DNA of 55,469 nucleotides. It comes from Dehalococcoidia bacterium (GTDB taxonomy: Bacteria > Chloroflexota > Dehalococcoidia > GIF9 > AB-539-J10). Location: NCBI GenBank assembly GCA_003567655.1, contig PWZA01000022.1, positions 1 to 55,469 on the forward strand, given 5' to 3'. Below, piece by piece: positions 5,309-52,532 of the stretch. The translations under genes were made by a program, and so were the position numbers. The number at the start of each line of letters is the position of its first letter. Positions within the stretch are counted from its first letter, which is position 1. The notes below the pieces were generated by a model, which made no database searches, was not told where the DNA came from, and was given only the letters and a program-made list of their open reading frames with translations.

Positions 5309-5477
5309 CGTGATAGGTCTTCATGCAGTCCGAGCCGTTGACATCGTTGTGGAGTGACGTGATAAAGTGTATAGAGTTACCACTTGATCTCGAGACTACG
5401 TAAGAAGGAGGTGTGACGGCATATAGTGTGTGAGTGAGATCTCGAAGCGACAAACTGATATAGACAGGAGGCGAACT

Positions 5478-25994: not shown

Positions 25995-28900
25995 TTACTG
26001 CCCCTCTCCCAATTCCTCCAGAAGCGCCGAGAGCAACTCTCTCTGAATGGATACGGGGAGGTCGAGTTCCTTAAGCAGCGCGTCTATCTGTGTTCGGGCG
26101 TGGAGTATCTGCTTCTCATGGGTGTTTGATCCTTTCGGGTCTACCTCCGGCCTCCAGTTCTCGATACTCTGCTTTGCTGATCGGAGTCTGGCCAGATATG
26201 TAGCGCTCCGGTCGGCTTCCCATTCCATAAACGGTTTGAGACGCATCCTTTCTGGCAATCTGTTGAGCATTCGCTCGATGATCGGAGTGCCCTCGCGAGC
26301 CGCCTCGATAAGGTGTCCTTCATCGCCCCTGAATGGGTGCATGCGTTGCACCTCAGTCAAAGCCCGATACCAGCGTTGCATGGCAAGAGCTGCCTCCTCC
26401 TGATGCTCTGTCTCAGCCCCGAACATGGCTCCTATCGCGGCAAGCAGCCTGCTCGCCCTCGCTCCTGCATATACATCCATCTCAGCAATCGCTCTGCGTA
26501 GCGAATCGAGTATCTGCTCGCATACTGCATGATCTCCAAGGTCGGTAGTATCAGCATCAAATCCGAGTGCAGCAGGGATCTGTCTCTGGATGATCTCTCT
26601 CGCGTGCCCGGTCTTCTCCAGATTGGCCAGGACATCAAGCAGGGGCCGGCACTGTTGGTTTTCAAGATCAGAGGCCGTTCGCGTCACTGCGGGCAATTTG
26701 CGGTACCATGCCAATAGGGCGTGCCTGGCCCGGTCCCAACCCGCGAAGTCGGTCAATGTCTCTTCGTCCACTGCGGTGAGGCGTATTATTCCGTTGACGT
26801 ATGCTCTTTGGGTGGGCGGCACTTCGTAGTAGTACACTACGAAGTCGGAGGGATTCCTTACCAGGTTTGCCACATCCTCGCCGGACAGGGGAAGGCATTC
26901 ATTGAGCGAATCGGGATTATGCTCTCTCTTGGCTTTCTCGAAGTTGTTGAAGACGACGGTATCCTCGCGTCGAGTGCGAAGAAACGCTGCCAGAAACAGC
27001 TCCAATGCCTGATTCGTGAGTCCGTACGGCGGCTCAATCAGGGGTATCACCAGTTCGGTAGCTGGAGTGACCTTGCCTCCCCGGGCAAGAGCCTGCGTGT
27101 TGAGGAACTCCCAGATTTCCCGGGCCGCCGAGTTCTCGGGGGCCTCATCCCGCATCTCAAACTCCTCGATGTTATCCCGGTCTGAAACTCTTTCCAGGAG
27201 TCCGACGTCCCTGAGGCAGGAACGCAGAATGCGTTCAGAAGCCGGACATCCCTTCTTGCTTAGCTGTATCGGTCCCTCTGTCTGCAAGAGCACATTCATC
27301 GCTGTCCAGCGGTGTTTCTTGCTTCTGTCGGTGGTGCTTATCGGGTTGGCGATAGTCTCATCGTTAATGTAAGGAGTCTTGGGGAAGATCTCCTCAAGCA
27401 CCTCAGAGATGAATTTCTCCTCGCCCCCTTGAGGCATGTCCGTGACCACGTTACCGTCCCGATGCCATGTCAGGTTGCTCGCGTGCAGGAAGTCCCGCAA
27501 ACCGTTGACCATATCTTCTCTGACACTTGCCTCCAGTATCTCAAACTCCTCGCTATCGACCTCGCCCTCATCTGTCTTCAGGCCCCGTTGCCTGACTGCT
27601 TGCACGGCAGTCCATTCGAGAGCCGTCTCGCCAAAACGGGCAGGTGTTTTTGGGATGGCGACAACCAGTTGGGGGTGCTTGCATATGTCCTGGCTGACAA
27701 GATGCTCTGCATTGCTGATATCCTCAGGGGTAGTTGCCACAACGTATGTAACCAGTGCGTCACCTTCGTGCTTAGCTCTGTCAGGCACATACCAGCTCTG
27801 TATTCGTTCCACATATTTCTCGGGACTCGAGAGATCTAACACGCCAATGAAGAGACAAGCAGCGTATCTTCTGGTGAAGTGCTTTGCGGAGTAATCGAGA
27901 GCTTCAACAGCGGGGAGGGCATGGTTCGTATTGAGATAGTCCTTAAGGTCGAACCCATCGTCGATTATCGTCTGTCTGGCTTTTCGCACTGCCTGACCTG
28001 CGTCTATAGTTCCCGGTCTGCCAGGCAGTTCATAGCGCTTTGTTATCGGGCGGCAGCGCAGATAACCCCTCTCCACGAGATCAGCGAGCGCCTGCGCCAG
28101 GTCCTTCTGGCCGGACGAGACATGTAATGCCTCCAGTATGGTTCTCTCAGTAGTGGGTAACAGGGGATGGTTGACTACAGAGAGGACGGCGATCACCTTC
28201 AATGCGCGCGTGGCCAGAGTATTGCGGCGCACCAGTGCCGACGCGTTATCCACCGCATCCACGATATATCCGTAGTCGGTGTGGGCATGTATCTGCCCTT
28301 TGTAGTAGTCATACAGCCTGTCCACAGTATAAAGGTTCAGCCTGTTGTCGGACTGCAATACGGTATTCTTGTCCATGAATCCCTGTAACCCGTTCTCAGA
28401 TGGATCGCCCAGGAGGGCGAAGAGGGTCCGTTCGCGCTGCTGAACCACGGAATTCGCCAGCCAGAGTAAGCAGAATGTCGCATATGGATGTAGTGGATAG
28501 CAGCCCTGCACAAGCCGCGATCTTATCCAGGATCTGTTCTGATCAGGATAGAGCCCTCTATCTTGTACGAGGTCAGTCAGAACACTAACCTCCGCGTGGG
28601 CTGCGACTCGCTTCCAGGTGTCGCCGGCCTTCTGCTGTACCAGTATCGCCCCTATTATCTCCTCCATCTCGTGTTCGCCACCGACTGCTGCCAGTTGATG
28701 ATCGGCACTCGTGAACTCACTACAGAGTTCGCTCCATTCTTCCGGAGATCGCATGTTCCCTGCGTAGTCATCGAGCGTCTGATGGGCGATTGCCACCAGG
28801 TGACACTGGTTGTGACCGCTTCCTTTACAATACGTGACGAATGACTGAAGCTGCTGGGTTTCGAATGAACCGGGATCCTCTGCCATATGAGAGAGATACC

Positions 28901-29684
28901 GTGCAAAGTCGTCATAGAAGATGAATACACCCTGCCACTGGCTGGTACTCCTCAGATGCTTTATCGTTTGATTGTAGACCTGGGCGGGATCAGCGGTGAG
29001 CTGAGGGATGAATGGAGCGCCATGCATGACCTCTCTGTGGAGTTCCTTGAACAGGCCGTAGCCACTCGTTTTGTATCGGGCCAACTCATCACTCACCATC
29101 TCCGGCGTCTTACCTTGCCTCAGGCAGGCATCCTCAAATCTCCTGTAGACCTCGGCATCGGTCATCATCCACGTGTTAATTGAGTCTAATGCAGCGAGAA
29201 ACACAGCGGGTGGATCATAGTCGATTCCTTCTGTGCGCAGAGCCTCAGCGAGAGAGGCCAGCAAGGAGTAGTTGAAGCTTTCGGGGCTCCAGGAAGGTTC
29301 TGGAAGCACGACCAAACACTTGCCCACGGCCCGGCGTGTCTGCCTTATGAGACTGACCAGTTGTTCGTCGTCCTGTTCCAGCTTTCTGAGAAACAGCGAC
29401 AGTGCCGGGTCATCAATGTCTCGCGATATCAGATTCGCCAGCACCAATCCGAAGTGGGACTTGCCTGTACCGCAGGCACCGCTTATCACGTGCACACGGG
29501 TCTTGGATTCGGGCTGCAGGCCTTCGAGGATGCCGCGTATTGCTGTTCTGGCGCCGCGTGGCGCTATGTAGCTTCTAAGCCTTCTATCATTTACCCTGGG
29601 GTCAAGGAAGTCACGCTTCAAGCATACTTCATCGGTAAGAGATTGCGCGATGCTGACCAAAGAACTGAGCTTCCGCTTCATCAT
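25995..29684 (-). CDS. Large P-loop NTPase, BrxC/PglY-like (DUF499/DUF6079 class)
   Basis: The 1229-aa protein has Walker A GACGTGKSHFGLVL at about residue 70. The same position and GKSHF context occur in BREX BrxC as I recall it. FIFYDDFARYL is Walker-B-like. The size matches BrxC at about 1200 aa. No other BREX genes are present in the window. Confidence 0.6.
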   Translation of the reverse strand: MMKRKLSSLVSIAQSLTDEVCLKRDFLDPRVNDRRLRSYIAPRGARTAIRGILEGLQPESKTRVHVISGACGTGKSHFGLVLANLISRDIDDPALSLFLRKLEQDDEQLVSLIRQTRRAVGKCLVVLPEPSWSPESFNYSLLASLAEALRTEGIDYDPPAVFLAALDSINTWMMTDAEVYRRFEDACLRQGKTPEMVSDELARYKTSGYGLFKELHREVMHGAPFIPQLTADPAQVYNQTIKHLRSTSQWQGVFIFYDDFARYLSHMAEDPGSFETQQLQSFVTYCKGSGHNQCHLVAIAHQTLDDYAGNMRSPEEWSELCSEFTSADHQLAAVGGEHEMEEIIGAILVQQKAGDTWKRVAAHAEVSVLTDLVQDRGLYPDQNRSWIRSRLVQGCYPLHPYATFCLLWLANSVVQQRERTLFALLGDPSENGLQGFMDKNTVLQSDNRLNLYTVDRLYDYYKGQIHAHTDYGYIVDAVDNASALVRRNTLATRALKVIAVLSVVNHPLLPTTERTILEALHVSSGQKDLAQALADLVERGYLRCRPITKRYELPGRPGTIDAGQAVRKARQTIIDDGFDLKDYLNTNHALPAVEALDYSAKHFTRRYAACLFIGVLDLSSPEKYVERIQSWYVPDRAKHEGDALVTYVVATTPEDISNAEHLVSQDICKHPQLVVAIPKTPARFGETALEWTAVQAVRQRGLKTDEGEVDSEEFEILEASVREDMVNGLRDFLHASNLTWHRDGNVVTDMPQGGEEKFISEVLEEIFPKTPYINDETIANPISTTDRSKKHRWTAMNVLLQTEGPIQLSKKGCPASERILRSCLRDVGLLERVSDRDNIEEFEMRDEAPENSAAREIWEFLNTQALARGGKVTPATELVIPLIEPPYGLTNQALELFLAAFLRTRREDTVVFNNFEKAKREHNPDSLNECLPLSGEDVANLVRNPSDFVVYYYEVPPTQRAYVNGIIRLTAVDEETLTDFAGWDRARHALLAWYRKLPAVTRTASDLENQQCRPLLDVLANLEKTGHAREIIQRQIPAALGFDADTTDLGDHAVCEQILDSLRRAIAEMDVYAGARASRLLAAIGAMFGAETEHQEEAALAMQRWYRALTEVQRMHPFRGDEGHLIEAAREGTPIIERMLNRLPERMRLKPFMEWEADRSATYLARLRSAKQSIENWRPEVDPKGSNTHEKQILHARTQIDALLKELDLPVSIQRELLSALLEELGEGQ

Positions 29685-29832: not shown

Positions 29833-30642
29833 TTAGCCATGATAAAGTGCCCGGAACAACCCCAGATACCAGTCGAGCATCGTGGTGCCGAACAGTATGG
29901 TGGCTATAGCAGCCAGTGAGAGAAATGGCCCGAAAGGGATGCCTTCCTTTCGCCTCCTTTTCTTGAACAGGAGTAGAACCAAGGCAACGACGCCTCCAAG
30001 GATTATGGCCAGGAGTAGGGCAACGAGTATGAGGGGGAACCCGGTAACCAGTCCTATCAGTGCCGCCATCTTGACGTCTCCCCAGCCCATACCACCGCGA
30101 GACACCAGTGCAATGAGGAGCAGTATGCCGAAGCCTACTCCTGCTCCCAGCGCAGCACTGGCGAGCCTGTCAACCATGCGATCCGCAAGCCAGGGATGAG
30201 GTATCAGGGTTAGAAGCAGAGCCACAACCATGCCGGGATAGATCACCTTGTTGAGAATCAGTTGGTGCTCCAGGTCAATCACGAAGATCACGATAAATAG
30301 ACAGGCATAGAAGGCCATGACCGCGAAAGCCACGATGCCCAGGTCAGGATTCAGCACGATGCACCACCAGTAGAGGAACGCGAAAACTCCGCCCGTTGCC
30401 AGTTCCACCCACAGTGACCTGGGCGATACCGTGCATCCACAGTATCGACAGCGACCGCGCAGTCTGAGATAGCTGAGTATAGGGATGAGGTCCTTGAAGA
30501 CCAGTCTGTGCTGGCAGGACTCGCAGTGAGAAGGGGGCTTTACAACGGACTCGTTTCTGGGCAGGCGATCAATGCATACCCCGAGGAAGCTGCCTATTGC
30601 CAGACCGATACAGGCAAACAAGAGCATCCACAGTGTTTCCAT
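29833..30642 (-). CDS. pilD: Prepilin peptidase, bacterial PilD type (peptidase A24 with N-terminal Cys-rich domain)
   Basis: The Cys motif is CESCQHRL...GRCRYCGCTV. The catalytic Asp contexts IFVIDLEH and GMGWGDVKMAALIG are present. ATG 30642 is preferred over TTG 30678. Confidence 0.88.
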   Translation of the reverse strand: METLWMLLFACIGLAIGSFLGVCIDRLPRNESVVKPPSHCESCQHRLVFKDLIPILSYLRLRGRCRYCGCTVSPRSLWVELATGGVFAFLYWWCIVLNPDLGIVAFAVMAFYACLFIVIFVIDLEHQLILNKVIYPGMVVALLLTLIPHPWLADRMVDRLASAALGAGVGFGILLLIALVSRGGMGWGDVKMAALIGLVTGFPLILVALLLAIILGGVVALVLLLFKKRRRKEGIPFGPFLSLAAIATILFGTTMLDWYLGLFRALYHG

Positions 30643-30725
30643 GGCGGCTATTGTGGACGCTTTTGACGATCCAGTCAATAGTGTATAGGGAGTACGATAA
30701 AAGGACTGTCAGATATGCGGCGCTG

Positions 30726-31022
30726 TTAGCTGGCCCTGTTTTTCAGTATGTCCGTGAGTTTGAGGAAGAGCAGCAATAGGGACGCCATGACCAGAAGATA
30801 GGAGCACAGCCAGATGACGGTCATCTCGGCAGTTCCTATTGAGTAGCCCATGAGTAGCAGTGTATAGGGTATCGCAAGGAGCGCCCAGCCTGTAGCCATG
30901 ACAATCCACAGGGTCCATCGCTGACCGGTTCTCTTGATGGTCAACAGGTATCCGAGTGCGGACAATGCTGCAATGAGCCAGGTAAACCCGAAATTGACGA
31001 GGTTCACTGTGAGTGCGCTCAT
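30726..31022 (-). CDS. Small 3-TM membrane protein, unknown function
   Basis: The 98-aa protein has three hydrophobic helices. It lies co-directionally between the acidic protein gene and pilD. No family was recognised. Confidence 0.5.
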   Translation of the reverse strand: MSALTVNLVNFGFTWLIAALSALGYLLTIKRTGQRWTLWIVMATGWALLAIPYTLLLMGYSIGTAEMTVIWLCSYLLVMASLLLLFLKLTDILKNRAS

Positions 31023-31142
31023 ACTACGGTTCCTCCTTTCGACACTGTATATTTGCTGATGCTATGGTTCGGTTCATCGAGGCCGGGTATGGATGACGGG
31101 CTTCGTTCCGTCGAACACAGCCCGGTCATGCCATCAACCGGC

Positions 31143-32180
31143 TCAACGATCGGATCTCTTTAACCTGTCAAGCAATTCCATTCCTTTCTGCAATATTTCG
31201 CTGACATCGACATCCTCCACTTCGTCGGCCAGCTTGTTGCTTTGCGTGTCTTCAGAAGAACTCCTGGCGAACAGATCGGAGAGGTCGCCCATGCTTTGCT
31301 TCTCTGCATCAGGCGTCTCCTCATCGGTTTCGTCTGAATCCATTTCTGCTGCTGGCCTCTCCGCACCGGGCTGCTCCTGATCCGCTGCGGGCTCGGCGCC
31401 TTCGCTTGTGTCGCTCTCGCTTGTTAGGGAAGAGGTCTCTGTACTCTGTGACTGTTCTTCTCTCTCTCCGCTCGAGGCCGGACTTACCGGCATCGGGTCG
31501 CTAGTTTCTTGCTTCACTTCACTCTCAGCTCCTGTATCCATCTCAGCTTCGGTCTCGTCCTTCGTATGAACTGCTTCTGGAGTACGTGTCGGGGTGGCCT
31601 CCTCTGCTGTCGGGCCTTCTTTGCCCTGCGAAGGTTCTTGAGTGGTTTCCTGTTGTCTCAGCATATCGGTGTCGGCAGAGGTTACGTCTGGCTCATCGGT
31701 AGGCAAGACATCGTCCACGGATTCGTCCTCCGGTTCTGTCGGCGGCTTCGAGCTCTCCTGCAACGCAGGTTCTTTAAGCTGGGCCCCTTCGTAACCCCGG
31801 TGATCACTGAGTCGTATCAACTTGATACTCCTGATGACCGACCACCATCTTACAACCGTCGCAAGTGCCGAACTCTTTGCCCGTAGTAAGCCGGGCATAG
31901 CTAGCTGAGTTGGCGAGTCCATCCTCGAAGCCCTCTCTGTTTCATGAAGGGCCCGTCTCCGTATGAAGCGCGTGAACCGACCCTCGGAGGTGGGACGCAG
32001 TTCGACCTTTGATTTACGGACGGATTGTTTCGGTTCTCTTTCAGTTTCAACCGCGAGCTCCCGGGCACGTTTCGAGGAAGGAAGCCTCAGCAAGTAGCTT
32101 ATTGTCAGTGTGATAACGGTCAGTGCTCCCGCAAGGATCACCATGTAGGAGAAGAGTATTCCGATCATTGCTGTGTCCAT
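31143..32180 (-). CDS. Single-pass membrane protein with basic juxtamembrane segment and ~200-aa highly acidic low-complexity region
   Basis: The N-terminal TM helix is IGILFSYMVILAGALTVITLTISYLL, followed by an R/K-rich stretch and then a long D/E/T/S/P-rich region. It lies 32 nt downstream of arlJ. No family was recognised. Confidence 0.55.
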   Translation of the reverse strand: MDTAMIGILFSYMVILAGALTVITLTISYLLRLPSSKRARELAVETEREPKQSVRKSKVELRPTSEGRFTRFIRRRALHETERASRMDSPTQLAMPGLLRAKSSALATVVRWWSVIRSIKLIRLSDHRGYEGAQLKEPALQESSKPPTEPEDESVDDVLPTDEPDVTSADTDMLRQQETTQEPSQGKEGPTAEEATPTRTPEAVHTKDETEAEMDTGAESEVKQETSDPMPVSPASSGEREEQSQSTETSSLTSESDTSEGAEPAADQEQPGAERPAAEMDSDETDEETPDAEKQSMGDLSDLFARSSSEDTQSNKLADEVEDVDVSEILQKGMELLDRLKRSDR

Positions 32181-32212
32181 AATCAGTCCTGTCTATTGTC
32201 CATTTTCGCTTC

Positions 32213-33715
32213 TTAGAGCATGCCGAACAGCATGTGTACTGTTGAGGGCGCGACGGTGATGACCACACCTGATATCGCTCCCGTCAGGCCGATGTAGAAG
32301 AAGAGTTTCTTTGGATGCCCCCCGCTGATGGAGTACATGGCGAAGGCATTGGCAAAGGTCAGTATGAAGACGATCGTCATGACCATGAAATAGAGGATCT
32401 CGATGTGCAGTGAGTCAGTGCCGAACAGGCCGAACGACGTCATCCCTGGCATTACGCCTTCCTGGAAACCTTCATCCGGCATGAGCCTCTGTACAAGATG
32501 ATAGAAGGTAAGGAAGACAGAGTAGACGAATACCGCAAGTGTGGTAAGCACCGCGTGCATAACTACCGTCAGCCAGGTGAATCCAGCCGATATCTGGCTC
32601 CGTTGTGCTCGCAAGAGAGACACCTTAAGAGCGAAGGCACTCGCTTCATTACCTACTTCCTGTGGCTCACCCCCCAGTGAAATCCCGTCCCAGAATGTGG
32701 TCACACTCCGGTTTATGAGCTCAGAGCCAGTTTCTCCGACAAATCTTCTCCAGCAGGTGTAAGGGGTAATGCCAGCAACGAGGCGAGTATGGAGGAGACT
32801 TACCTCTTCCTTCAGTATGCCTAGGGAGCGGAAGTCTATTCGACTGATAGCCTCGGCGGCGGTGGCTCCTATGGCCTGCATCACTCCCCCGAGAGAGCGG
32901 AGGAAAGCGGCTATATCATCGTCTCGCTGTGCCACCCTTCTATCATCCAGCATGACAACGACACCTACCGCAAGCAGAAAGAGGCTGGCGATGATGATGA
33001 CATTGCCCAGATCAGCTCCCAGCACAAGCAGCGATATTACAACAATGCCTCCTATGGGAAAGACTAGCTTCGCCAGATTAATGGCAAAGTCCTGCTCTTT
33101 GGAGTGGATGGGCAGCGAATGAATCTTGACTTCTCGGGGCGCCGTGCGGTACAGAAACCAGACCCCTGTGAGGGTCACCCCGATGGTGAGGGCCGCCATT
33201 GAGAACAGAAACGGGAGTGTGATGTTTCCGATCATCATGGTCACTACTATCATGACGGTGACCAGGGCCGACGTAAGGATCAACGACACGTATGCGTCGG
33301 ACCACTTCTTCAGGATGTCAAGCTTCCGTTCATAGCTGTTGCCGTAGGAGTCGGAGAGAATCGCTGACTCACGGGATAGGAAAGCTGCGATATCCTCCCC
33401 TGAAGCCAGGGCGCCTGACATTCGTAGCAGAAGGGCTTTGATGGCCGGTTCCCTGGTCTTCTCGCCCACGATGCGGCATGCCTGTGAATAGTCGTGGTTG
33501 AACATCTTGGCAACGAAGTCAACCCTTCTGAAATAGCGGGTAGCTATGTAGGGTAGTTTGGCAGCTTGGTAGAAGAGCCCGCTTCTAGATATGCCGGATG
33601 TTGCGATTGCCGCCATGTATGCCAACTGGCAGAAGAAGTCGACCTCCAATAGTTCGCTATCGAAGCTGTCGGACTTCTGTTTCGCCTTCTTCTTACCGAA
33701 CCGAGGCAACTGCAT
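32213..33715 (-). CDS. arlJ: Archaellum platform membrane protein ArlJ (FlaJ; T2SS-F family)
   Basis: The 500-aa polytopic protein has two cytoplasmic T2SSF-like helical domains (FFCQLAYMAAIATSGISRSGLF...; FLRSLGGVMQAIGATAAEAI). Its start overlaps the arlI stop by 1 nt. Confidence 0.85.
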   Translation of the reverse strand: MQLPRFGKKKAKQKSDSFDSELLEVDFFCQLAYMAAIATSGISRSGLFYQAAKLPYIATRYFRRVDFVAKMFNHDYSQACRIVGEKTREPAIKALLLRMSGALASGEDIAAFLSRESAILSDSYGNSYERKLDILKKWSDAYVSLILTSALVTVMIVVTMMIGNITLPFLFSMAALTIGVTLTGVWFLYRTAPREVKIHSLPIHSKEQDFAINLAKLVFPIGGIVVISLLVLGADLGNVIIIASLFLLAVGVVVMLDDRRVAQRDDDIAAFLRSLGGVMQAIGATAAEAISRIDFRSLGILKEEVSLLHTRLVAGITPYTCWRRFVGETGSELINRSVTTFWDGISLGGEPQEVGNEASAFALKVSLLRAQRSQISAGFTWLTVVMHAVLTTLAVFVYSVFLTFYHLVQRLMPDEGFQEGVMPGMTSFGLFGTDSLHIEILYFMVMTIVFILTFANAFAMYSISGGHPKKLFFYIGLTGAISGVVITVAPSTVHMLFGML

Positions 33716-35451
33716 TAGAAGAGCCCCTCTCTCTGCGCTTTTGACAATACCTCAAGGACCTCGTAGAATCCTGTGACCTTCTTCTCTCTGTGTAGCCTGG
33801 CCAGTATGTTGGCCCGCCTCTCTAACTCCGTGTATATGGCCCGCTTATTATTGGCCTGTATACCGAGCCTGGGGGCTACCTTGTACTCCAGGACGTAGCT
33901 GATCATATAGCCGGTAAACTCGAAGACATCCTTTTCCTGGTCCCACTTGAAGCTTTCCACGAATGAGAATGAGTCCAGCGCGGGATCATAGTTCACGATT
34001 TCTGCGATGCCTGTGACCCGTCTCCCCGTTCTTCCTCCGGGCAATTTGACCTGGCTGGTGAGGATGACTACATTGAGGTTATCCACATAGTTCTTCGGCA
34101 CCAGTATGGGGTCGCCGGTGATCCGCTGAACGAGCTTTTCCACGGACGCCGCATGAAATGTGGCCATGACTGAGTGACCGGTTTGCATCGCCTGGAAGGC
34201 TATGTTGCCTTCGGCACCGCGTATCTCACCCACCAGTATTTCATTGGGTCTCTGGCGCAGTGCTGCCTTCAGTAGGTCGAACATGCTGACCGCCCCACTG
34301 GTGTCATCGGTTCTGGTTGTCTGGGCCACCTCTCTGATCCAGTTCTTATGGGGCACCTGCAACTCCGGAGTGTCCTCCAGAGTTAGCACCTTTGATAGAG
34401 GCGGTATAAAGGTGGTTACGGCGTTGAGCAACGTTGTCTTGCCGGAGGCGGTTTCGCCTGAGACGAACACGTTCATCCCCGAGCCTATGACCAGTGACAA
34501 ATACGCCAGCATGTCATAGTTCAGAGTGCCGAACTCCAGCAATTCGAATATGGAGAGAGGGGTTTCGCTGAACTTACGGATACTGAAGTTGGAGCCGCGC
34601 CTTGAGACTTCCTTGCCGTAGACGATGTTTATCCGTGACCCGTCCGGAAGGGTGGCATCGGCTATAGGCCTCTTGTAGTTGACCGGCTTCTTTACCCGTT
34701 CAGATAACCAGAGCACGAATTCGTCGAGCTCTTCGTAGGCGGAGAATTTGATTGTGCTCTTGAGGCTTTTGAAGATCTTGTGTTCAACGAATATGTTTCC
34801 CATGCCTGAACAGCTGATATCCTCGATATAGGGGTCCAGCATCAAGGGGTCCAGGACTCCCACGCCGAGCTTGTCCCGGACAAACAGGTACCTGAGCGCG
34901 TCCAGTTCTCTTGATGTGACTCGGATCTTGGAAACGGCAATGCCGTCCTTACGAAGAAAGCCTACAGTGTTATCGAGGAAGCTCGGAAGCGGCTGGTCGT
35001 CGACGCTGGTCACCATATCGAGCAGGTCCAGAAGCTGTGCTTCCCTGTCCCCCGCGAGATCGAGGTGCGGAAGCTTCTTGCGGAGTTCCAGGAGCTTGAT
35101 TTCTATACGCTGCATCAGCGGGTTAAGGCCGGCGGTTAGCGGCTCTATGGGTATGTAACGGTTTCTCACGTCATCATCGTCAGATAAGATATGGATGAAG
35201 ACATTCTTGCTGCGAATGGGGTAGATGTAATTGGGTTGCTTGTTGTCGCCCAGTTGGCGAGAGGGCTCGGGCACGAACTCGGGCATCCCTATCTCTGATA
35301 TTGGTAGGCCGCTCACATAATCCAGCACATGCGGGTGCTCTGCGCAAACTGACCTCAAGGGTTCCGGTAGTGCCTCTGCCACGGCGTGGTTTGGCGTACC
35401 GAGGTCTTCCCTGGTTACTGTTTCGACCGTAGAAACGGAAGTCGCCGTCAT
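33715..35451 (-). CDS. arlI: Archaellum motor/assembly ATPase ArlI (FlaI), paralog 1
   Basis: It has Walker A GETASGKTT, the Asp box LTLEDTPEL, Walker B ILVGEIRGAE and the His box ATFHA. The size (578 aa) and N-terminal domain are FlaI-like. Confidence 0.9.
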   Translation of the reverse strand: MTATSVSTVETVTREDLGTPNHAVAEALPEPLRSVCAEHPHVLDYVSGLPISEIGMPEFVPEPSRQLGDNKQPNYIYPIRSKNVFIHILSDDDDVRNRYIPIEPLTAGLNPLMQRIEIKLLELRKKLPHLDLAGDREAQLLDLLDMVTSVDDQPLPSFLDNTVGFLRKDGIAVSKIRVTSRELDALRYLFVRDKLGVGVLDPLMLDPYIEDISCSGMGNIFVEHKIFKSLKSTIKFSAYEELDEFVLWLSERVKKPVNYKRPIADATLPDGSRINIVYGKEVSRRGSNFSIRKFSETPLSIFELLEFGTLNYDMLAYLSLVIGSGMNVFVSGETASGKTTLLNAVTTFIPPLSKVLTLEDTPELQVPHKNWIREVAQTTRTDDTSGAVSMFDLLKAALRQRPNEILVGEIRGAEGNIAFQAMQTGHSVMATFHAASVEKLVQRITGDPILVPKNYVDNLNVVILTSQVKLPGGRTGRRVTGIAEIVNYDPALDSFSFVESFKWDQEKDVFEFTGYMISYVLEYKVAPRLGIQANNKRAIYTELERRANILARLHREKKVTGFYEVLEVLSKAQREGLF

Positions 35452-35474
35452 AGTAGTTTTCCCGGCTTGCCCTG

Positions 35475-37217
35475 CTAGAACAAGCCCTCCTTCTGCGCCC
35501 TGCTGAGCACGTCCAGCACCTCGTAGAAGCCGGTAACTCCTTTTTCCTTGTGCAGTCTCTCAAGGATGGTAGCCCTCTTCTGTACTTCGGCATATATCCG
35601 CGTCTTCTGATTGGCGGGAATGCCTAGCATTAGTGCGATCTTGAATTCCATGATATAGCTGGTCATATAGCCGGTGAACTCGTAGCTATCGGTTGCCTGG
35701 TCAAATCTGAAGGCCTCTGCAATGTTGAAGGATTTCGACAGGGAGTCCCAGCCTACTATCTCGGCGATGCTGGTCACACGACGTCCTATCTTTCCGTTTG
35801 GTAGGCGCACTATGCCCATCAGTACGGCAATATTCAGGTTGTCGATGTAGGTCGTGGGTACATTGATCGGATCTCCTGTAATGCGTTGGATGAGTTTCTC
35901 AATGGAGGCGGCGTGAAAGGTGGCCATCACCGAGCGTCCTGTCTGCATAGCCTGGAAGGCTATGTTTCCTTCTTTGCCCCTGATCTCTCCGACGATGATC
36001 TCGTTCGGTCGCTGCCGAAGGGCGGCCTTTAGGAGATCGAATGTAGTTACCGCGCCGCTGGTATCATCTGAACGTGTGGTCTGGACCACTTCCCTGATCC
36101 AGTTCTGGTGCGGCACCTGCAGTTCCGGAGTGTCCTCGATAGATATGACCTTGGCGCGCGGCGGGATGAACACCGTGAGGGCGTTTAGCAGGGCGGTCTT
36201 GCCCGATGCCGACTCGCCCGAGACGAAGATGTTCATTCCGTTACTGACCGCGAGTGAAAGGTATGCCAGCATCTGATAGTCGACGGTGCCGAATTCGACC
36301 ATGTCGAATATCGAGAGAGGAACCTCGCTGAACTTGCGAACACTGAAGTTAGAGCCGCGCTTGGAAACGTCCCGACCGAAGACGATGTTGATCCGTGATC
36401 CGTCCGGCAGCGTGGCATCGGCAATCGGTTTCCTATAGGTAATCGGCTGCCTGACACGCTCAGCCAGTCGGATGACGAAATCGTCGAGTTCGTCGAGATT
36501 CGAGAAGACTATGGTGCTCTTGAGGCTCTTGAAGATCTTGTGTTCAACGAATACCGCTCCCAGCCCGGAGCAGCTTATGTCCTCGATATAGGGGTCGAGA
36601 ATCAGCGCATCCAGAAGGCCCATGCGCACCTTGTCTCTGATGAAGAGGTATTTGATCCCGGCTAGCTCTCGCTGGTTGACCTTGATCTTGGGAACTGTGA
36701 TGTCGTCACTGCGGCGTAGGAAATGAAGATACTTCTCGAGCACGCCGGGAGGGGCGATCTCCTGCTCGGTCGTGACCTGGTCGACGTATGAGAGAAGGTG
36801 CTCTTTTCTGTCATGGTCGGGGTTGATGCCCGGAATGTTCTCGCTGACGGCTATGCAGGCGTCCTCGACTTCTCTCATCAGCCCGCTGAGGTCCAGACTT
36901 GTAGTTGGCTCGATCGGAATGTAGTTGTGCCTGTCACCGCTATCGTCGTGTAATATGTGGATGAAGATCCCGTCTGTGCCGGCAGGATAGACGAGGTTCG
37001 GTTCCGTGATATCGGCCATTTTCCTGGAGAGCACAGGCCGATAGTCGGGAATGCTGAATCCAGAAGCTCGCAAGCGGCTTATGTACTCCAGGAGGTGTGG
37101 GTGTTCTTCGCAAGCGGCTCTCAGTGCCTCATGTCGGATCTCTTCGAGCGACATGGTTTCGGAACTCCCGAGATCGGGAAGGCTCTCGATTATGGGTTGC
37201 GTTTCTACACTTGCCAT
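35475..37217 (-). CDS. arlI: Archaellum motor/assembly ATPase ArlI (FlaI), paralog 2
   Basis: It has Walker A GESASGKTA, ISIEDTPEL, IIVGEIRGKE and ATFHA. It is collinear with paralog 1 over the full length. The C-terminal two-thirds is highly similar and the N-terminal ~200 aa is diverged. Confidence 0.9.
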   Translation of the reverse strand: MASVETQPIIESLPDLGSSETMSLEEIRHEALRAACEEHPHLLEYISRLRASGFSIPDYRPVLSRKMADITEPNLVYPAGTDGIFIHILHDDSGDRHNYIPIEPTTSLDLSGLMREVEDACIAVSENIPGINPDHDRKEHLLSYVDQVTTEQEIAPPGVLEKYLHFLRRSDDITVPKIKVNQRELAGIKYLFIRDKVRMGLLDALILDPYIEDISCSGLGAVFVEHKIFKSLKSTIVFSNLDELDDFVIRLAERVRQPITYRKPIADATLPDGSRINIVFGRDVSKRGSNFSVRKFSEVPLSIFDMVEFGTVDYQMLAYLSLAVSNGMNIFVSGESASGKTALLNALTVFIPPRAKVISIEDTPELQVPHQNWIREVVQTTRSDDTSGAVTTFDLLKAALRQRPNEIIVGEIRGKEGNIAFQAMQTGRSVMATFHAASIEKLIQRITGDPINVPTTYIDNLNIAVLMGIVRLPNGKIGRRVTSIAEIVGWDSLSKSFNIAEAFRFDQATDSYEFTGYMTSYIMEFKIALMLGIPANQKTRIYAEVQKRATILERLHKEKGVTGFYEVLDVLSRAQKEGLF

Positions 37218-37278
37218 ATTTGATCTCGCTTTAGCATTCAGTCTGTCTACATCATTTGCGTAATAGCCGGCCGCTCGG

Positions 37279-37995
37279 CTAGGCCCTTGCTCTCGAGAGA
37301 GGCATAATCTTCATGCCTATCTGCGGCTCGACCTCGAAGGTTATTATGTTGCCTGTGGTTTGTGCGGCGCCCCTGACCTTTGCCACCTCCAGTGTCTTAA
37401 CCAGCTTGTCGCCGATCTTTTCGATCATCAGTCTGAGGTGGGCATCGGAGGCCGACCTCACACGCAGCAGGACGCGTGTATCGAGGGCATAGCTATGCAT
37501 TACGTTGATTATCGTCCGTCCCTGGTCGCAAAAGTACTTGCACCGCTCGATGTAGTGCATGATCTCGACATCGCTTACGATAGGTAGCATGGGGGTCAGC
37601 GAGTCCACTATGATGAGGCGGTGTTCGGTGTGTTGAGCAGTGGCATCGAGTATGGTAGGGAATGCATCGTTGGCTCGGTCCTTGAGTTGCGACGGCCGCA
37701 TGTAGTAGACCTTGACCCTGCCCAGGAGCAGATAATCAAGAATGTTCAGGCCCAGGCTGTCCATCTGCGTCATCAGGCTTTTCGTTGTGTTCTCGGTGGT
37801 GAAGAGAATCACCTGGTAGCCATCGTTCAGCGAGCCCCAGATCATCTGCTGACAGAAGACTGACTTACCGGAGTCAGATTCGCCCTCGACAAGGGTAAGT
37901 GAGCCTATGGGAAGACCCCCGCCCAGCCTCTTATCGATTTCGGAGTGTCCGGTTGAGATTATGTTCTTCTTTGCCTCTTCTGTCGCTGCTTCCAT
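37279..37995 (-). CDS. arlH: Archaellum KaiC/RecA-like ATP-binding protein ArlH (FlaH)
   Basis: It has the KaiC-like pattern STGHSEIDKRLGGGLPIGSLTLVEGESDSGKS and the Walker B-like RLIIVDSL. The ATG at 37995 lies 1 nt after the upstream stop. Confidence 0.8.
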   Translation of the reverse strand: MEAATEEAKKNIISTGHSEIDKRLGGGLPIGSLTLVEGESDSGKSVFCQQMIWGSLNDGYQVILFTTENTTKSLMTQMDSLGLNILDYLLLGRVKVYYMRPSQLKDRANDAFPTILDATAQHTEHRLIIVDSLTPMLPIVSDVEIMHYIERCKYFCDQGRTIINVMHSYALDTRVLLRVRSASDAHLRLMIEKIGDKLVKTLEVAKVRGAAQTTGNIITFEVEPQIGMKIMPLSRARA

Positions 37996-37996
37996 T

Positions 37997-38536
37997 CTAG
38001 TCTCCGTTGCCTTCACATTGGCTCTGGGCCCTGGTAACAAGGCACTGCGAGGTCACTCCGTTGGGCGTTGAGATGACTATCCTTACCGTCTCCCCGGCGG
38101 ATATCTCCGTCTCGGGGTTGACAACAACGGTCATTGCCTCGCTGGGATTGAGGATGTTCAGCCCAAAAACCTCCGGTGAGCCGTCGGTCATGAATATTCC
38201 GTCTACTGCCCACTCTCCGGGTTCGGGCGGTGATTCCTCTGCGTAGGTCAGATGGGAGGTGCCCCCGGATTGATACTGGATGATGACGTCCCACCTGGCA
38301 TAGTTACTGAGATCGGTGTTGCCCTGGTTCTGCACGGACAGTTCTATGGTTCCGCCATCGTAGTCATCCGCGGCGACCGCCTTGATCTCGGTCCGTCTCG
38401 TTTCGCTAGCCTGCACTTCCATGTCCTTCCAGGCATCGGTGAGGCTGTTGGCAGCATGGAATGTGCTGACTGTGACGGTCAGGGTACTCATGATGATGAG
38501 TGCCAGAGCGACAACCGATACCAGGATAGTATCCAT
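37997..38536 (-). CDS. ArlG/ArlF-family archaellum stator-like protein (N-terminal TM helix + beta-rich domain)
   Basis: The N-terminal helix is ILVSVVALALIIMSTLTVTV, followed by a beta-rich domain (IELSVQNQGNTDL...VVNPETEI). Its position after the other F/G-like gene and before arlH matches the euryarchaeal arlF-arlG-arlH order. Confidence 0.6.
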   Translation of the reverse strand: MDTILVSVVALALIIMSTLTVTVSTFHAANSLTDAWKDMEVQASETRRTEIKAVAADDYDGGTIELSVQNQGNTDLSNYARWDVIIQYQSGGTSHLTYAEESPPEPGEWAVDGIFMTDGSPEVFGLNILNPSEAMTVVVNPETEISAGETVRIVISTPNGVTSQCLVTRAQSQCEGNGD

Positions 38537-38539
38537 ATC

Positions 38540-39019
38540 TTACTCCATACTGAATGAGGTTTGGCTGGAGATTCCATTCGGCAGCACGATCTTGAACCAG
38601 TAGTTATCCTGTGGCAGCGGCTCCTCAAGGTTGATGGTAATCCTGTTCGTAACCGACTGTCCCCAGAAGCTGTAATTCCCCTCCAGTTGATAAGTCCAGT
38701 ACGGCAGCGCCGATCCTTCGTCTCCGTAAGGGATTCTTGACAGTTCGCCGTACCGGCCGAAGAAGACATCGCTGTTCTGAATCGCTCCGATCTGCGATGT
38801 ACCTACGTTCTTAACCCAGGCATCCACAGTGCTGTTGCTCCCGGCAGCGTGGATGATTTCCACTTGACTTCTGATACGGTCGCTTACAACAGTGACGGAG
38901 TCGCTTACTGCCTGACCTCCCCTCTCCACCGCCGGGTAGACTCCGTTGAATATGGCGAAGGACGCTACTACTCCGCCTATAATCAGCATAACCGTAACGA
39001 TTATCTTATCCATGGGCAT
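38540..39019 (-). CDS. ArlF/ArlG-family archaellum protein (N-terminal TM helix + beta-rich domain)
   Basis: The N-terminal helix is IIVTVMLIIGGVVASFAIF, followed by VEIIHAAGSNSTVDAWVKNVGTSQI, an archaellin-like beta-sandwich pattern. There is a 3-nt gap to the next gene. Confidence 0.6.
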   Translation of the reverse strand: MPMDKIIVTVMLIIGGVVASFAIFNGVYPAVERGGQAVSDSVTVVSDRIRSQVEIIHAAGSNSTVDAWVKNVGTSQIGAIQNSDVFFGRYGELSRIPYGDEGSALPYWTYQLEGNYSFWGQSVTNRITINLEEPLPQDNYWFKIVLPNGISSQTSFSME

Positions 39020-39689
39020 CTTGGCCAGACAGAATCGAAAGCAGGGCGGCCTCTGTCTGGTTGTCCTTGCCGAGGAGGGTGGTGATCTTCACCAGCGAGT
39101 CCAGAAATGCCCTTGCCGAGCGAGCCTCCGAATTGCCGTTTCCGTCTATGCTGACGAACTTCTTCATGATGCCCTTAAGGTCGGGCGAGAGGAGACCCAT
39201 CATCTCGGCGACATCGAGAATGGTCTCCGTCCTTTCAAGTCCCAGTCTCTTGACGGATTCATCGGCCCAGTTCACCAGTCCGCCGATCGTGATAAGGTTT
39301 AGCTCGCGCTCCGAAGCGTGGGTCTTCTGCGGTTTCTGGACGGCTGGAGCTTTCTCCGGCTTATGCGCCTTTATCACCTCCTCGCGCGCTCTTTCCGGAT
39401 GCCTTTCCTTTACTGTCTCGTTGGCTGCCATCGTTTCCTCTGGTATGTCCTCTTCCTCTTTCTTGTTTGAAACGTCGTCTGGCTCCGCCTGGGGCTTCGA
39501 GTCGTTGTCGGCAGGTTGCTGGTCAACCGCGAGTTGCTCTTGGCCGGTGGCAACCTTCTCAGAGGGCGCATTGAACGGGTTATCGGCCTCCAGATACTTG
39601 TCTCTTAGGTCGAGCAGTACCGCCTGAACCTCGTTCTTCAGTATCTTGATGTCGCTTTCCAGATGGCCTATGTTCTCAGTTGTCTCCAT
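39006..39689 (-). CDS. ArlC/D/E-like archaellum accessory protein (coiled coil + acidic linker + FlaD/E-like C-terminal domain)
   Basis: The C-terminal LNLITIGGLVNWADESVKRLGLERTETILDVAEMMGLLSPDL resembles the FlaD/E pattern (L..W.eFL...G......L.YY...GWIS). Its position between arlB and arlF matches euryarchaeal operons. The call is tentative. Confidence 0.5.
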   Translation of the reverse strand: METTENIGHLESDIKILKNEVQAVLLDLRDKYLEADNPFNAPSEKVATGQEQLAVDQQPADNDSKPQAEPDDVSNKKEEEDIPEETMAANETVKERHPERAREEVIKAHKPEKAPAVQKPQKTHASERELNLITIGGLVNWADESVKRLGLERTETILDVAEMMGLLSPDLKGIMKKFVSIDGNGNSEARSARAFLDSLVKITTLLGKDNQTEAALLSILSGQDAHG

Positions 39690-39726
39690 TCGAGTTTCCT
39701 CCTCTGTTATGCCCTCTCTTTATCCT

Positions 39727-39763
39727 GGTAGGAATCAGCGGGGTTTTCCCGCTGATTCCTACC
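39727..39763 (-). terminator. Perfect 16-bp stem-loop between arlB and the downstream archaellum genes (attenuator / mRNA-stabilising hairpin)
   Basis: GGTAGGAATCAGCGGG-gtttt-CCCGCTGATTCCTACC lies 64 nt after the arlB stop and 37 nt before the next start. No U-tract follows it on the minus strand. Confidence 0.5.
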
Positions 39764-39827
39764 TCCATCGGCAGGTGGCTGTTCATCCAACACCGCACAT
39801 GCCGATTCTACCTGTTACCTAGTACGA

Positions 39828-40418
39828 TTAGAACAGGTCGTTGACTGCGTTCAGGGATCCGGGCAGAGTCCTCTTAATGGTTATGGCTGCACCGGTGGGC
39901 GGGATGATCTGCAGGGTAAAGCTGTCGTAGGGCTGCAGCGTGACCCCACCATCGATCGCGGTCACGTCGATGGTTATCGTCATCACCTGGTGCGGGCCGA
40001 GAAGAGGACTGTCTGCGCCCTCCGTGACGCCCTGCAACTCATGGGTGAAGGTGATGTCCGACACAACAACATTGGTGTCGGAGTAGTTGATTATGACGTT
40101 GCCGATGTCAACCGTCTGGTCGGCAAGGACCGAGGCCAGTGAGAATTGTATTTCCTCTACTGTGCCGTTGATGCCGGTGTCAGTGGTTGTGGCGTAGACT
40201 GAGCCCCTGACCTGCATTGATGCCTGTGCCTGAGCCAGCCCGCTGTATACTGCCTCCTGGCCTCGTTCAGCCGAGAAGATACCTGCCGACAGAACGCTGT
40301 AGGCAAGTACCGCGGCCACGGTCACGAAGGCGATCAGTATGATGGCGGTCTCAAGGCCGGTGATACCTTTTTCACCACGATGGAGCTTTCTTAGTGCTCT
40401 TACCATTGTCTTTTTCAT
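39828..40418 (-). CDS. arlB: Archaellin (ArlB/FlaB) with class III signal peptide
   Basis: The N-terminus is MKKTMVRALRKLHRGEKG|ITGLETAIILIAFVTVAAVLAYSVLSAGIF. The TGLE.AI.LIAF..VAAV core matches methanogen-type archaellins as I recall them. N-x-S/T sequons are present. Length is 196 aa. Confidence 0.8.
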   Translation of the reverse strand: MKKTMVRALRKLHRGEKGITGLETAIILIAFVTVAAVLAYSVLSAGIFSAERGQEAVYSGLAQAQASMQVRGSVYATTTDTGINGTVEEIQFSLASVLADQTVDIGNVIINYSDTNVVVSDITFTHELQGVTEGADSPLLGPHQVMTITIDVTAIDGGVTLQPYDSFTLQIIPPTGAAITIKRTLPGSLNAVNDLF

Positions 40419-40557
40419 TGTTCCTTTGTTCTTCTCCTTGTTTGTTTATTTGGTCTCCCTATATATTCCTTAGCCCCCGCCTCCCTCATGGTGCGGGTGC
40501 TACTCATTTTTGCGTGTTTCACATCTTGATCACCTCCTCGGAAATCCCGGCATAGTC

Positions 40558-40890
40558 TTAGCTGTCGTTATTGCCTTTCGACCTCCTGGTATTGCGAGAG
40601 CCTGAAAGGGGCGGTTTATCAGGCCTGGCTGTGCGTTTGTTGCCTGTGGTAACCGGTCTATGTTCCAGGCGCTCGCCGTTGTCCCGGAGGTCCTCTCCTG
40701 TATCGACCTCAGCCAGGAAGCGAGCGATTTCCCGGTATTCAAATCGGCGATCGCCCCGGGGGGCGATGCGGTATGCCTTGATCCTCCCGTCTTTGCTCCA
40801 GCGTCTCAGGGTGTTGGGGTGAACATGGAGGAGGCGTGCCACCTCCTTCACAGTGAGCATTGCATGCATCTTGTCATTACCTTCCATCAT
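40558..40890 (-). CDS. Excisionase/MerR-family helix-turn-helix DNA-binding protein with basic tail
   Basis: LTVKEVARLLHVHPNTLRRWSKDGRIKAYR is the typical excisionase-family HTH. An AGAGGAG RBS lies 9 nt before the ATG. It sits immediately upstream of arlB and co-directional with it. Confidence 0.75.
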   Translation of the reverse strand: MMEGNDKMHAMLTVKEVARLLHVHPNTLRRWSKDGRIKAYRIAPRGDRRFEYREIARFLAEVDTGEDLRDNGERLEHRPVTTGNKRTARPDKPPLSGSRNTRRSKGNNDS

Positions 40891-41226: not shown

Positions 41227-41303
41227 TGGTGGGCCATTGTGGATTCGAACCACAGACCCCGGTCTTATCAGGACCGTGCTCTAACCAACTGAGCTAATGG
41301 CCC
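41227..41303 (-). tRNA. tRNA-Ile (anticodon GAU), CCA encoded
   Basis: The cloverleaf was read by hand: GGGCCAT-TA-GCTC..GAGC-A-CGGTC-CTGATAA-GACCG-GGGTC-TGTGG-TTCGAAT-CCACA-ATGGCCC-A-CCA. Confidence 0.95.
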
Positions 41304-47433: not shown

Positions 47434-47533
47434 CTGTGTGTCTTGTCGGCGCAAGAGCAAGGCGCATTCGTTGACACTGGATTTGGTGGGTGTTAACATC
47501 TGACCATAAACGTAATAGAAGAAGGAGGGTCTC

Positions 47534-48310: not shown

Positions 48311-48377
48311 CGTTCGTGGTTAAGGCGCGGGATTGCCGCGCTGCGCTCGCAATGACAGGTAAAGGAGGGTTTTCGAT

Positions 48378-49526: not shown

Positions 49527-49530
49527 TCCC

Positions 49531-51315: not shown

Positions 51316-51330
51316 TTCGGCCTCCTTTTG

Positions 51331-52515: not shown

Positions 52516-52532
52516 ACCTCCTTATGCAAGGA

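Follow-up and report, generated by a model that had tools for sequence, protein, structure and literature searches.

A very likely complete arl2-type archaellum operon with tandem ArlI ATPases in a Dehalococcoidia chromosome

The archaeal flagellum, or archaellum, is encoded in a stretch of bacterial DNA that we analysed here: contig PWZA01000022.1, 55,469 nucleotides (nt) long and referred to below as the window, which matches a contig of a soda-lake sediment metagenome-assembled genome (MAG; GCA_003564015.1). Positions 29833-40890 of the window very likely hold a complete arl2-type archaellum operon of a Dehalococcoidia chromosome, which was anciently acquired and has been adapted to its bacterial host. 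As far as its sequence allows us to judge, the operon is genuine and intact, and probably functional. Archaella are already established in this phylum: arl clusters in arl2 order were reported in 243 of 3,780 Chloroflexota genomes, and for Litorilinea aerophila arl expression and swimming were shown and the filament was solved at 2.7 Å (Sivabalasarma et al., Nat Microbiol 2025, PMC12488501). The inter-domain transfer has thereby been published as a headline result, and what appears to be new here is a tandem pair of ArlI motor ATPases and a gene following arlJ. We did not find either of them described, and the same holds for the prepilin peptidase gene pilD within the operon together with a Gly at position -1 of the archaellin cleavage site, and for a hairpin that follows the archaellin gene arlB.

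The twelve open reading frames (ORFs) of the block all run in the same direction on the minus strand, are all intact and are tightly spaced. A 14-nt stretch (39006-39019) is shared by the arlCDE-like gene and arlG, arlG and arlF are separated by 3 nt, arlF and arlH by 1 nt if arlH starts at ATG 37995 (the start used by the public gene call), and arlI-2 and arlJ have a single nucleotide, 33715, in common. These coordinates agree with a first-pass annotation of the same DNA, made from its letters alone, which had described twelve co-directional genes with this spacing. Three of the twelve genes (those for a helix-turn-helix (HTH) protein, the post-arlJ protein and a small membrane protein) are non-canonical. 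In the direction of transcription, the features of the block are:

40558-40890, minus strand: HTH protein of the MerR/excisionase type, 110 amino acids (aa); Pfam HTH_17 47.9 bits and MerR 35.4 bits, NCBIfam excisionase-family domain 39.2 bits
39828-40418, minus strand: arlB, the single archaellin; Pfam Arch_flagellin
39727-39763, minus strand: perfect 16-bp hairpin between arlB and the arlCDE-like gene; inverted repeat, 100% complementary
39006-39689, minus strand: arlCDE-like gene; family matches to PF04659 Arch_fla_DE, and position
38540-39019, minus strand: arlG, stator component; family profile against solved FlaG
37997-38536, minus strand: arlF, stator component; family profile against solved FlaF
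37279-37995, minus strand: arlH, KaiC/RecA-like ATP-binding motor protein, 238 aa; NCBIfam FlaH
35475-37217, minus strand: arlI-1, upstream motor ATPase paralog; NCBIfam FlaI
33715-35451, minus strand: arlI-2, downstream motor ATPase paralog; NCBIfam FlaI
32213-33715, minus strand: arlJ, probable polytopic membrane platform; NCBIfam ArlJ/FlaJ models, Pfam T2SSF
31143-32180, minus strand: post-arlJ motif protein, 345 aa; conserved C-terminal motif
30726-31022, minus strand: hydrophobic protein of 98 aa; homologous ORFs in related loci
29833-30678, minus strand: pilD, bacterial-type prepilin peptidase; Pfam A24_N_bact and Peptidase_A24

The archaellin ArlB scored 74.5 bits against Pfam Arch_flagellin (cut-off 29.5) and 25.7 bits against the NCBIfam archaellin N-terminal domain (cut-off 20), and its best match in the PDB was 9i5h (E 9.5e-30), an entry deposited as 'Flagellin' which we take to be the Litorilinea aerophila archaellin. 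ArlH reached 266.6 bits with the NCBIfam FlaH model PRK06067 (cut-off 194) and 198.5 bits with the ArlH equivalog model (cut-off 215), and its best PDB match was FlaH 4yds (E 1.8e-28). Both ArlI proteins, of 580 aa each, exceeded the equivalog cut-off of 550 bits of the NCBIfam archaellum motor model FlaI, with 607.6 bits for ArlI-1 and 630.7 bits for ArlI-2; among the other NCBIfam models they gave 176-180 bits for the bindosome ATPase, 140-149 for TadA, 46-52 for PilB and 44-54 for GspE. In the PDB, ArlI-2 matched FlaI 4ii7 with 437.7 bits, GspE2 with 275.5 and CpaF with 156.5. The platform protein ArlJ had three NCBIfam matches, all of them to ArlJ/FlaJ models (best E 4e-124), along with 29.6 bits for Pfam T2SSF, and the position of its gene beside arlI is conserved in related loci wherever the region is covered.

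As single sequences, the two stator proteins gave weak matches (24.9 bits to NCBIfam ArlG for ArlG and 30.2 bits to Pfam Arch_flagellin for ArlF). Family profiles built from 28 positional orthologs matched ArlG to the soluble domain of S. acidocaldarius FlaG (5tug, E 3.3e-15) and ArlF to FlaF (4p94, E 3.7e-12), the latter better than to FlaG (E 1e-7). ArlG consists of an N-terminal transmembrane (TM) helix and a beta-sandwich domain, and the order of arlG followed by arlF is that of the arl2-type arrangement. At the position of arlF, locus L005 of our comparison set has an ORF of 535 aa (5810-7417) compared with about 170 aa elsewhere; only its end matches ArlF, and possible explanations are a stator protein that is extended or fused and a mis-called ORF.

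In the ArlCDE-like protein, a coiled-coil helix at the N-terminus is joined by an acidic, disordered linker to a five-helix domain at the C-terminus that is related to FlaD/E; in the AlphaFold2 model the helix spans residues 2-34 and the bundle residues 132-226, with a predicted local distance difference test score of about 90. Seven of the 39 members of its family match PF04659 Arch_fla_DE (best E 4.7e-5), and no other family is matched by more than two members. Its positional orthologs in Methanosarcina reach 19.4 bits against this model, where the cut-off is 21, several homologs have been named FlaD/FlaE by JGI, and the gene stands between arlB and arlG in Chloroflexota and Methanosarcina loci alike.

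The ATPases, the platform and the peptidase all belong to superfamilies (T2SSE, T2SSF and Peptidase_A24) that archaella share with bacterial Tad/Flp pili, type IVa pili and type II secretion systems, and a locus of one of these kinds could in principle be misread as an archaellum. We give this reading almost no credence: the TadA, PilB and GspE scores of the ATPases stand against 608-631 bits for FlaI, those for TadA and PilB falling well short of the cut-offs of their models, every NCBIfam match of the platform protein is an ArlJ model, and no secretin, PilM/N/O or TadZ/B/C/G was identified among the window ORFs of at least 150 aa. The first-pass annotation had separated the locus from Tad, type IV pilus and type II secretion loci on similar grounds, and its call is upheld by the presence of ArlH, ArlF and ArlG and by the scores of both ArlI proteins above the archaellum-specific cut-off; its count of one archaellin gene and no bacterial flagellar genes among the annotated ORFs of the window was likewise correct. 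Tad pili are themselves a precedent for bacteria taking over an archaeal filament machine as a whole (cited in PMC12488501), but they are without ArlH, ArlF, ArlG and ArlCDE and without propulsive rotation, and CpaF is the nearest bacterial ATPase among solved structures.

It is also unlikely that the locus encodes an archaeal type IV pilus for adhesion, sugar binding or DNA exchange instead of a rotating motility filament. The archaellum-specific ArlH, ArlF, ArlG and ArlCDE-like genes are all present, both ArlI proteins lie above the motor equivalog cut-off with far lower scores for the bindosome ATPase, and the filament protein is closest to 9i5h, presumably the swimming filament of Litorilinea. 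What speaks for a pilus is that the window carries no chemotaxis genes and that, according to published work, two Chloroflexota received an archaeal pilus other than the archaellum in a separate second transfer (PMC12488501).

The motor ATPase of the operon is duplicated. We compared the window with 79 loci from GTDB species representatives, and the trees described below are neighbour-joining trees of the 80 most similar loci only. Besides the window, 19 of the 79 loci carry arlI in tandem; only one copy is present in each of the remaining 48 Chloroflexota loci and of the 12 archaeal ones. Nearly all of the 19 tandem loci were binned as Dehalococcoidales, Dehalococcoidia or Chloroflexia, and one was labelled Desulfobacteraceae. 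In archaeal type IV filament subsystems the ATPase is single-copy in every case, unlike in bacterial systems (preprint 10.64898/2026.04.22.720090), and with its two tandem ArlI the locus departs from the published description, in which the core ATPase and the platform are single-copy and served as such for the concatenated tree. Full-text searches of the literature returned no report of two ArlI.

The two paralogs of the window are 61% identical. In the trees, all tandem ArlI copies form one clade in 100 of 100 bootstrap replicates, within which the subtrees of the upstream and downstream copies largely mirror each other, and we judge from this topology that the tandem paralogs trace to one duplication. 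In one Dehalococcoidia MAG (locus L015; 287-2029 and 2054-3799), the two ArlI group with each other and not with their positional orthologs in all bootstrap replicates, a pairing that suggests gene conversion between the tandem copies.

Both ArlI copies are under purifying selection. In species pairs with measurable and unsaturated synonymous divergence, the ratio of non-synonymous to synonymous substitution rates (dN/dS) was 0.03-0.15 for both copies, compared with 0.02-0.23 for ArlJ and ArlH, and dN was similar for both copies in the species pairs compared. At the level of the family, the Walker A motif, Asp box, Walker B motif and His box are kept in both copies, and the catalytic boxes of ArlI-2 match the consensus of single-copy and archaeal proteins. 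After the GKT of Walker A, upstream copies have A, S or T where all other sequences invariably have T, and this is the only systematic relaxation in the upstream copies. Of 154 ancestrally conserved sites, the two copies retain 93% and 95%; divergence from the outgroup is symmetric between them in every region, and three sites discriminate the paralogs. A degenerate second ATPase was considered and ruled out by the kept catalytic boxes, the 93-95% retention of conserved sites and the symmetric divergence.

Bacterial type IVa pili likewise have duplicated hexameric ATPases (PilB for extension, PilT and PilU for retraction) of which all copies are kept. In contrast to PilB, PilT and PilU, the ArlI copies of the window are close paralogs of the same length and domains, and nothing indicates retraction. 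The two copies would either form a mixed hexamer or share out the tasks of assembly and rotation.

The second new feature is the 345-aa protein encoded after arlJ. It combines a TM helix at the N-terminus with a basic patch, a long linker that is acidic and disordered and, towards the C-terminus, a conserved motif of about 46 aa, and searches of Pfam, NCBIfam and the PDB found nothing for it. An iterated profile hidden Markov model (HMM) of the motif, run on the six-frame ORFs of all fetched loci, gave 51 matches. A motif ORF stands directly after arlJ in 46 of the 61 Chloroflexota loci with room downstream, with three more matches nearby, and in none of the 12 archaeal loci. The motif is the sole constant element of these proteins, which are of the TM-linker-motif type, small, soluble and acidic, or two-TM forms; five loci have it fused, through a TM segment that follows it, to LysM and Peptidase_M23 domains. 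A search of 1.84 billion representative proteins returned 37 relatives of the window motif, and in each of them the match ends at most six residues from the C-terminus. The motif is missing from the four loci of Caldilineaceae, the family of Litorilinea, and this absence may be why the protein went undiscussed; we found no literature on an M23 protein or a motif protein of this kind tied to archaella.

We read the post-arlJ protein as a Chloroflexota-specific archaellum accessory and propose, from its architecture and position, that the conserved cytoplasmic motif would dock on the motor. The motif may resemble the CheY-binding peptides of FliM and CheZ; the spacing differs. In Litorilinea, PilN and PilO-LysM have been proposed as the anchor, and the solution elsewhere in Chloroflexota was called unknown (2026 Litorilinea envelope paper); genes of this PilN/PilO-LysM type were not identified beside the window cluster. 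Dehalococcoidales are reported to have lost peptidoglycan, which fits the finding that the motif protein of the window has no wall-binding module.

The processing of the archaellin appears to be fitted to the host as well. ArlB bears a signal peptide of class III, and the first residue of the 9i5h chain aligns to its Ile19, so that cleavage is predicted after Gly18 (between ...GEKG and ITGLETAI), with Ile19 as the start of the mature protein. Gly is found at -1 in 79 of 79 Chloroflexota archaellins, with Ile, Met, Leu or Val at +1. The nearest archaeal archaellins (n = 11) have Ala at -1 in 8 of 11, and Phe at +1 and Lys/Arg at -2 in 11 of 11. Bacterial PilD generally needs Gly at -1, and the peptidase of the operon is of the bacterial PilD type, with 105.3 bits for Pfam A24_N_bact and 62.3 bits for Peptidase_A24; its likely start is ATG 30627, which gives a protein of 264 aa, as in the public gene call. 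The locus thus carries a PilD-type enzyme in place of an archaeal-type class III signal peptidase (FlaK or PibD). We regard PilD as a functional substitute for these and see no ground to exclude the locus from archaellum loci, and PilD is the predicted processing enzyme for ArlB.

PilD-like genes in the same orientation lie near arlJ or within the cluster in 11 other Chloroflexota loci. In two Caldilineaceae loci (L041, 8181-8846; L072, 7840-8547), a PilD-like gene is located inside the cluster between arlF and arlH. The published account of the Litorilinea system places the peptidase outside the arl locus and describes it as of bacterial type in non-SAR202 Chloroflexota (PMC12488501), whereas in the window pilD lies within the operon.

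Between arlB and the arlCDE-like gene, the hairpin at 39727-39763 has a perfect 16-bp stem and no T-tract, and the intergenic region folds with -57.8 kcal/mol (z = -6.5). Most Chloroflexota loci have a comparably strong hairpin in this region; in archaeal loci the structures after arlB are weaker and several are followed by T-rich sequence. We read the hairpin as an attenuator or an mRNA-stabilising element placed after the major subunit gene. Shine-Dalgarno-like sequences are present upstream of arlB and of the arlCDE-like gene. For riboswitches or other known RNAs upstream of arlB or of the HTH gene, the Rfam search showed only two tRNAs. A sigma-70 promoter for the operon was sought and rejected, as candidate counts were no better than in shuffled sequence and the sole strong site belongs to tRNA-Ile.

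The order arlB-arlCDE-arlG-arlF-arlH-arlI-arlJ is found in most of the 79 loci with a long enough contig, including those of Methanosarcina and ANME-1 relatives. Chloroflexota ArlI are monophyletic in 97 of 100 bootstrap replicates, and the ArlI of the window fall within this clade. The nearest archaeal ArlI are those of Methanosarcina, Methanophagales, Methanoxibalbensis and Alkanophaga (the Methanosarcinales and ANME-1/Syntrophoarchaeales group), at 50-54% identity, compared with 59-68% for the tandem-arlI Dehalococcoidia relatives. The transfer is read as ancient and shared by the phylum on account of this ArlI monophyly and of the fully ameliorated composition of the block. By this evidence, the cluster was very likely not acquired recently but derives from one ancient transfer from a Methanotecta-like euryarchaeon into Chloroflexota, after which it was inherited within the phylum. 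Earlier work likewise concluded that Methanotecta were the source, and that the recipient was the ancestor of Dehalococcoidia and Anaerolineae (PMC12488501).

The first-pass annotation had proposed an inter-domain transfer of the whole machine from a methanogen-like euryarchaeal donor, and had suggested an ArlI phylogeny as a check. Both the donor and the transfer are supported by our neighbour-joining trees, in which archaea are the nearest neighbours of the Chloroflexota clade; the event itself moves back in time, from this genome to an ancestor shared across the phylum.

Comparison with the Methanotecta arl2 loci (Methanosarcina, ANME-1/Methanophagales and Syntrophoarchaeales) shows the same gene order and content as in the window, down to an ArlCDE-like gene that is a homolog of the window's by position and sequence, at 23-25% identity. 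The archaeal loci differ from the window in having a single ArlI and in lacking both the post-arlJ motif protein and a bacterial PilD. With the archaellum of Litorilinea aerophila, the window shares the parts list (ArlB, an ArlCDE-like protein, ArlG, ArlF, ArlH, ArlI and a probable ArlJ), the arl2 order and the bacterial-type PilD, and the mature archaellin starts with I-T-x-L-E-T-A-I in both. The four Caldilineaceae loci have one ArlI each and no motif protein after arlJ, in contrast to the two tandem copies and the motif protein of the window locus.

The host is, by its gene content, a Dehalococcoidia (Chloroflexota) bacterium. The block is flanked by genes for RecX, RecA, TruB, TilS, a QueG-like protein, MoxR, LysRS and SerRS and by two tRNAs, and the nearest named matches of RecA, at 81-86% identity, are labelled Dehalococcoidia or Chloroflexota MAGs; the bacterial flanks noted in the first-pass annotation are thus confirmed. 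In tetranucleotide composition, the arl block correlates at 0.88 with the remaining window sequence, inside the span of 0.83-0.91 given by the other window chunks, a result that answers the annotation's call for a tetranucleotide check and speaks against a chimeric join; for archaeal arl loci the correlation with the window is only -0.20 to 0.17. GC content is flat over both junctions of the block. Three further assemblies overlap parts of the region at 99.86-100% identity (a 53.8-kb NCBI contig, a 13.1-kb Logan contig and a JGI contig), and both junctions with bacterial genes recur among them. The composition of the block, like that of the rest of the window, and the same join in other assemblies indicate neither a chimera nor a recent import.

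These data bear directly on the suspicion that archaeal DNA was joined to a bacterial contig by mis-assembly or mis-binning, which we consider highly improbable. Such errors would be conceivable in a MAG, and a few related contigs are oddly labelled Desulfobacteraceae, Acidobacteriota or Terracidiphilus. Apart from the composition and the recurring junctions, they are countered by related arl clusters lying within Chloroflexota contigs of up to 2.78 Mb, by the bacterial type of the in-operon peptidase, and by ArlI sequences that are nearer to Dehalococcoidia than to archaea.

Several observations weigh against a complete, anciently acquired and host-adapted archaellum operon. In the profile-HMM searches that the first-pass annotation had recommended, ArlB, ArlH and both ArlI were placed above cut-offs, but ArlJ, at 414.8 bits, stayed below its curated NCBIfam cut-off of 570, and the ArlCDE-like protein of the window had no Pfam match of its own; its model had no fold match in the PDB at E <= 0.001, and its sequence profile found nothing there either. 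The division of the tandem ArlI into two lineages is supported in 70 of 100 replicates for the upstream clade and in 32 of 100 for the downstream clade, and the restriction of the sample and of the trees given above counts in the same direction. The organism is known solely as a MAG, from sequence alone. No chemotaxis, flagellar or pilus genes occur among the annotated ORFs of the window, and from a window without chemotaxis genes directed swimming cannot be inferred. Finally, at codon 428 (window position 35935) ArlI-1 has Arg in place of the first His of the His box (TGH), a position at which His is the consensus in every group of about 99 other aligned ArlI from Chloroflexota and archaea. 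Two sibling assemblies (PWSK01000140.1 and Logan SRR490155) have His at this codon, and R428 could be a strain variant that perhaps impairs the copy, or an assembly error.

The substitution at this otherwise invariant His raises the alternative that an inherited cluster is decaying in this lineage and that a working machine is no longer built. We regard such decay as very unlikely. The single archaellin gene would be in keeping with it, as would the six non-synonymous changes among ten clustered ArlH substitutions between sibling assemblies. All genes, however, are intact and tightly spaced, dN/dS is low for both ArlI copies and similarly low for other motor genes, and the sibling assemblies keep the His at a codon of a protein family in which both copies retain nearly all conserved sites. 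The ArlH substitutions form a patch: between the window and the sibling NCBI contig, 10 of 31 differences fall within 255 nt of arlH (codons 21-106; 37679-37933), and this cluster could be a recombination patch or a hotspot of population microdiversity.

Taking the locus as an intact archaellum operon, we propose a mechanism whose steps are drawn from the archaeal and Litorilinea systems. PilD would cut ArlB after Gly18 and so remove its class III signal peptide of 18 residues. ArlJ and the ArlI hexamer would build the ArlB filament and then rotate it with ATP, with ArlH modulating ArlI; ArlF and ArlG would form the stator on the outer face of the membrane, and the ArlCDE-like protein would form a cytoplasmic ring or switch. 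Adaptations to the host would comprise the Shine-Dalgarno-like sites, the post-arlB hairpin, the Gly at -1 that fits PilD, the in-operon position of pilD, the post-arlJ gene and the duplicated ArlI. Gene content, homology, synteny, purifying selection and the continuity with the bacterial flanks come from the sequences themselves; that the genes are expressed, that a filament is assembled and that the cells swim is inferred, as is what the second ArlI and the post-arlJ protein do. ATP-driven rotation and swimming by a bacterial archaellum have been shown only for Litorilinea aerophila (PMC12488501). It is tempting to speculate, and we do so tentatively, that the archaellum was re-engineered after transfer, through a retained duplicate ArlI (acting in a mixed hexamer or splitting assembly from rotation) and through a conserved acidic motif that docks envelope modules on the motor, among them LysM and M23 domains that bind or cut peptidoglycan.

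The remaining small genes of the block are less widely shared. The HTH gene is separated from arlB by a 139-nt gap, no homolog of its product was detected in the 14 nearest related loci searched, and this product may act as a local regulator. The cluster is headed by this excisionase/MerR-type gene (40558-40890), which follows tRNA-Ile (41227-41303), a layout typical of integrative elements. An integrative island at tRNA-Ile was rejected: we found neither an integrase nor a directly repeated tRNA end, and the composition shows no break. The 98-aa protein apparently has three TM segments, judged by inspection, and gave no match in Pfam, NCBIfam or PDB searches. It is 46-54% identical to ORFs upstream of arlB in four related loci (L004, 2538-2828; L009, 3808-4143; L014, 537-872; L016, 3131-3466), and these homologs of 98-111 aa share 34 invariant positions with it. 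In the window, by comparison, its gene lies between the post-arlJ gene and pilD, and the family is linked to the arl cluster only in the nearest subclade.

None of the flanking genes of the window recur beside related clusters, and we found no conserved synteny beyond the cluster itself. Directly downstream of pilD, 25995-29684 (minus strand) encodes a 1229-aa P-loop protein of the SspC/BrxC family (PADLOC SspC 264 bits, BrxC-PglY 74 bits); it has no Pfam match, and no other Ssp or BREX genes were identified beside it. A subtilase of 807 aa with a PA domain and two divergent InlB B-repeat (Flg_new_2) domains is encoded at 5430-7853 (plus strand), and is probably a secreted or surface protease with no relation to the archaellum. 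A dense set of fatty-acid beta-oxidation genes at 46666-55019 (short-chain dehydrogenase, enoyl-CoA hydratase, two 3-hydroxyacyl-CoA dehydrogenases, acyl-CoA dehydrogenase and thiolase) indicates a heterotrophic lifestyle of the host.

That archaella work in bacteria is already established, and the locus can be regarded as a natural experiment with such a machine, in which the duplicated ATPase and the bacteria-specific accessory gene merit follow-up more than the inter-domain transfer itself. How the transferred machine was fitted to the processing enzymes of its host can be seen from the Gly that is invariant at -1 and from the pilD gene within the operon. In archaea, assembly and rotation are two jobs of one ArlI. 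The two conserved and catalytically intact paralogs described here, kept in at least 20 Dehalococcoidia species and under purifying selection in the species pairs compared, offer separation-of-function material for the question of how one ArlI hexamer performs both. The post-arlJ motif protein, fused to LysM and M23 domains in some lineages, is a candidate anchor for those archaellated Chloroflexota that lack PilN and PilO. If the proposal is true, docking of LysM/M23 modules by the motif would explain by what means an archaeal motor is held in a bacterial wall and crosses it.

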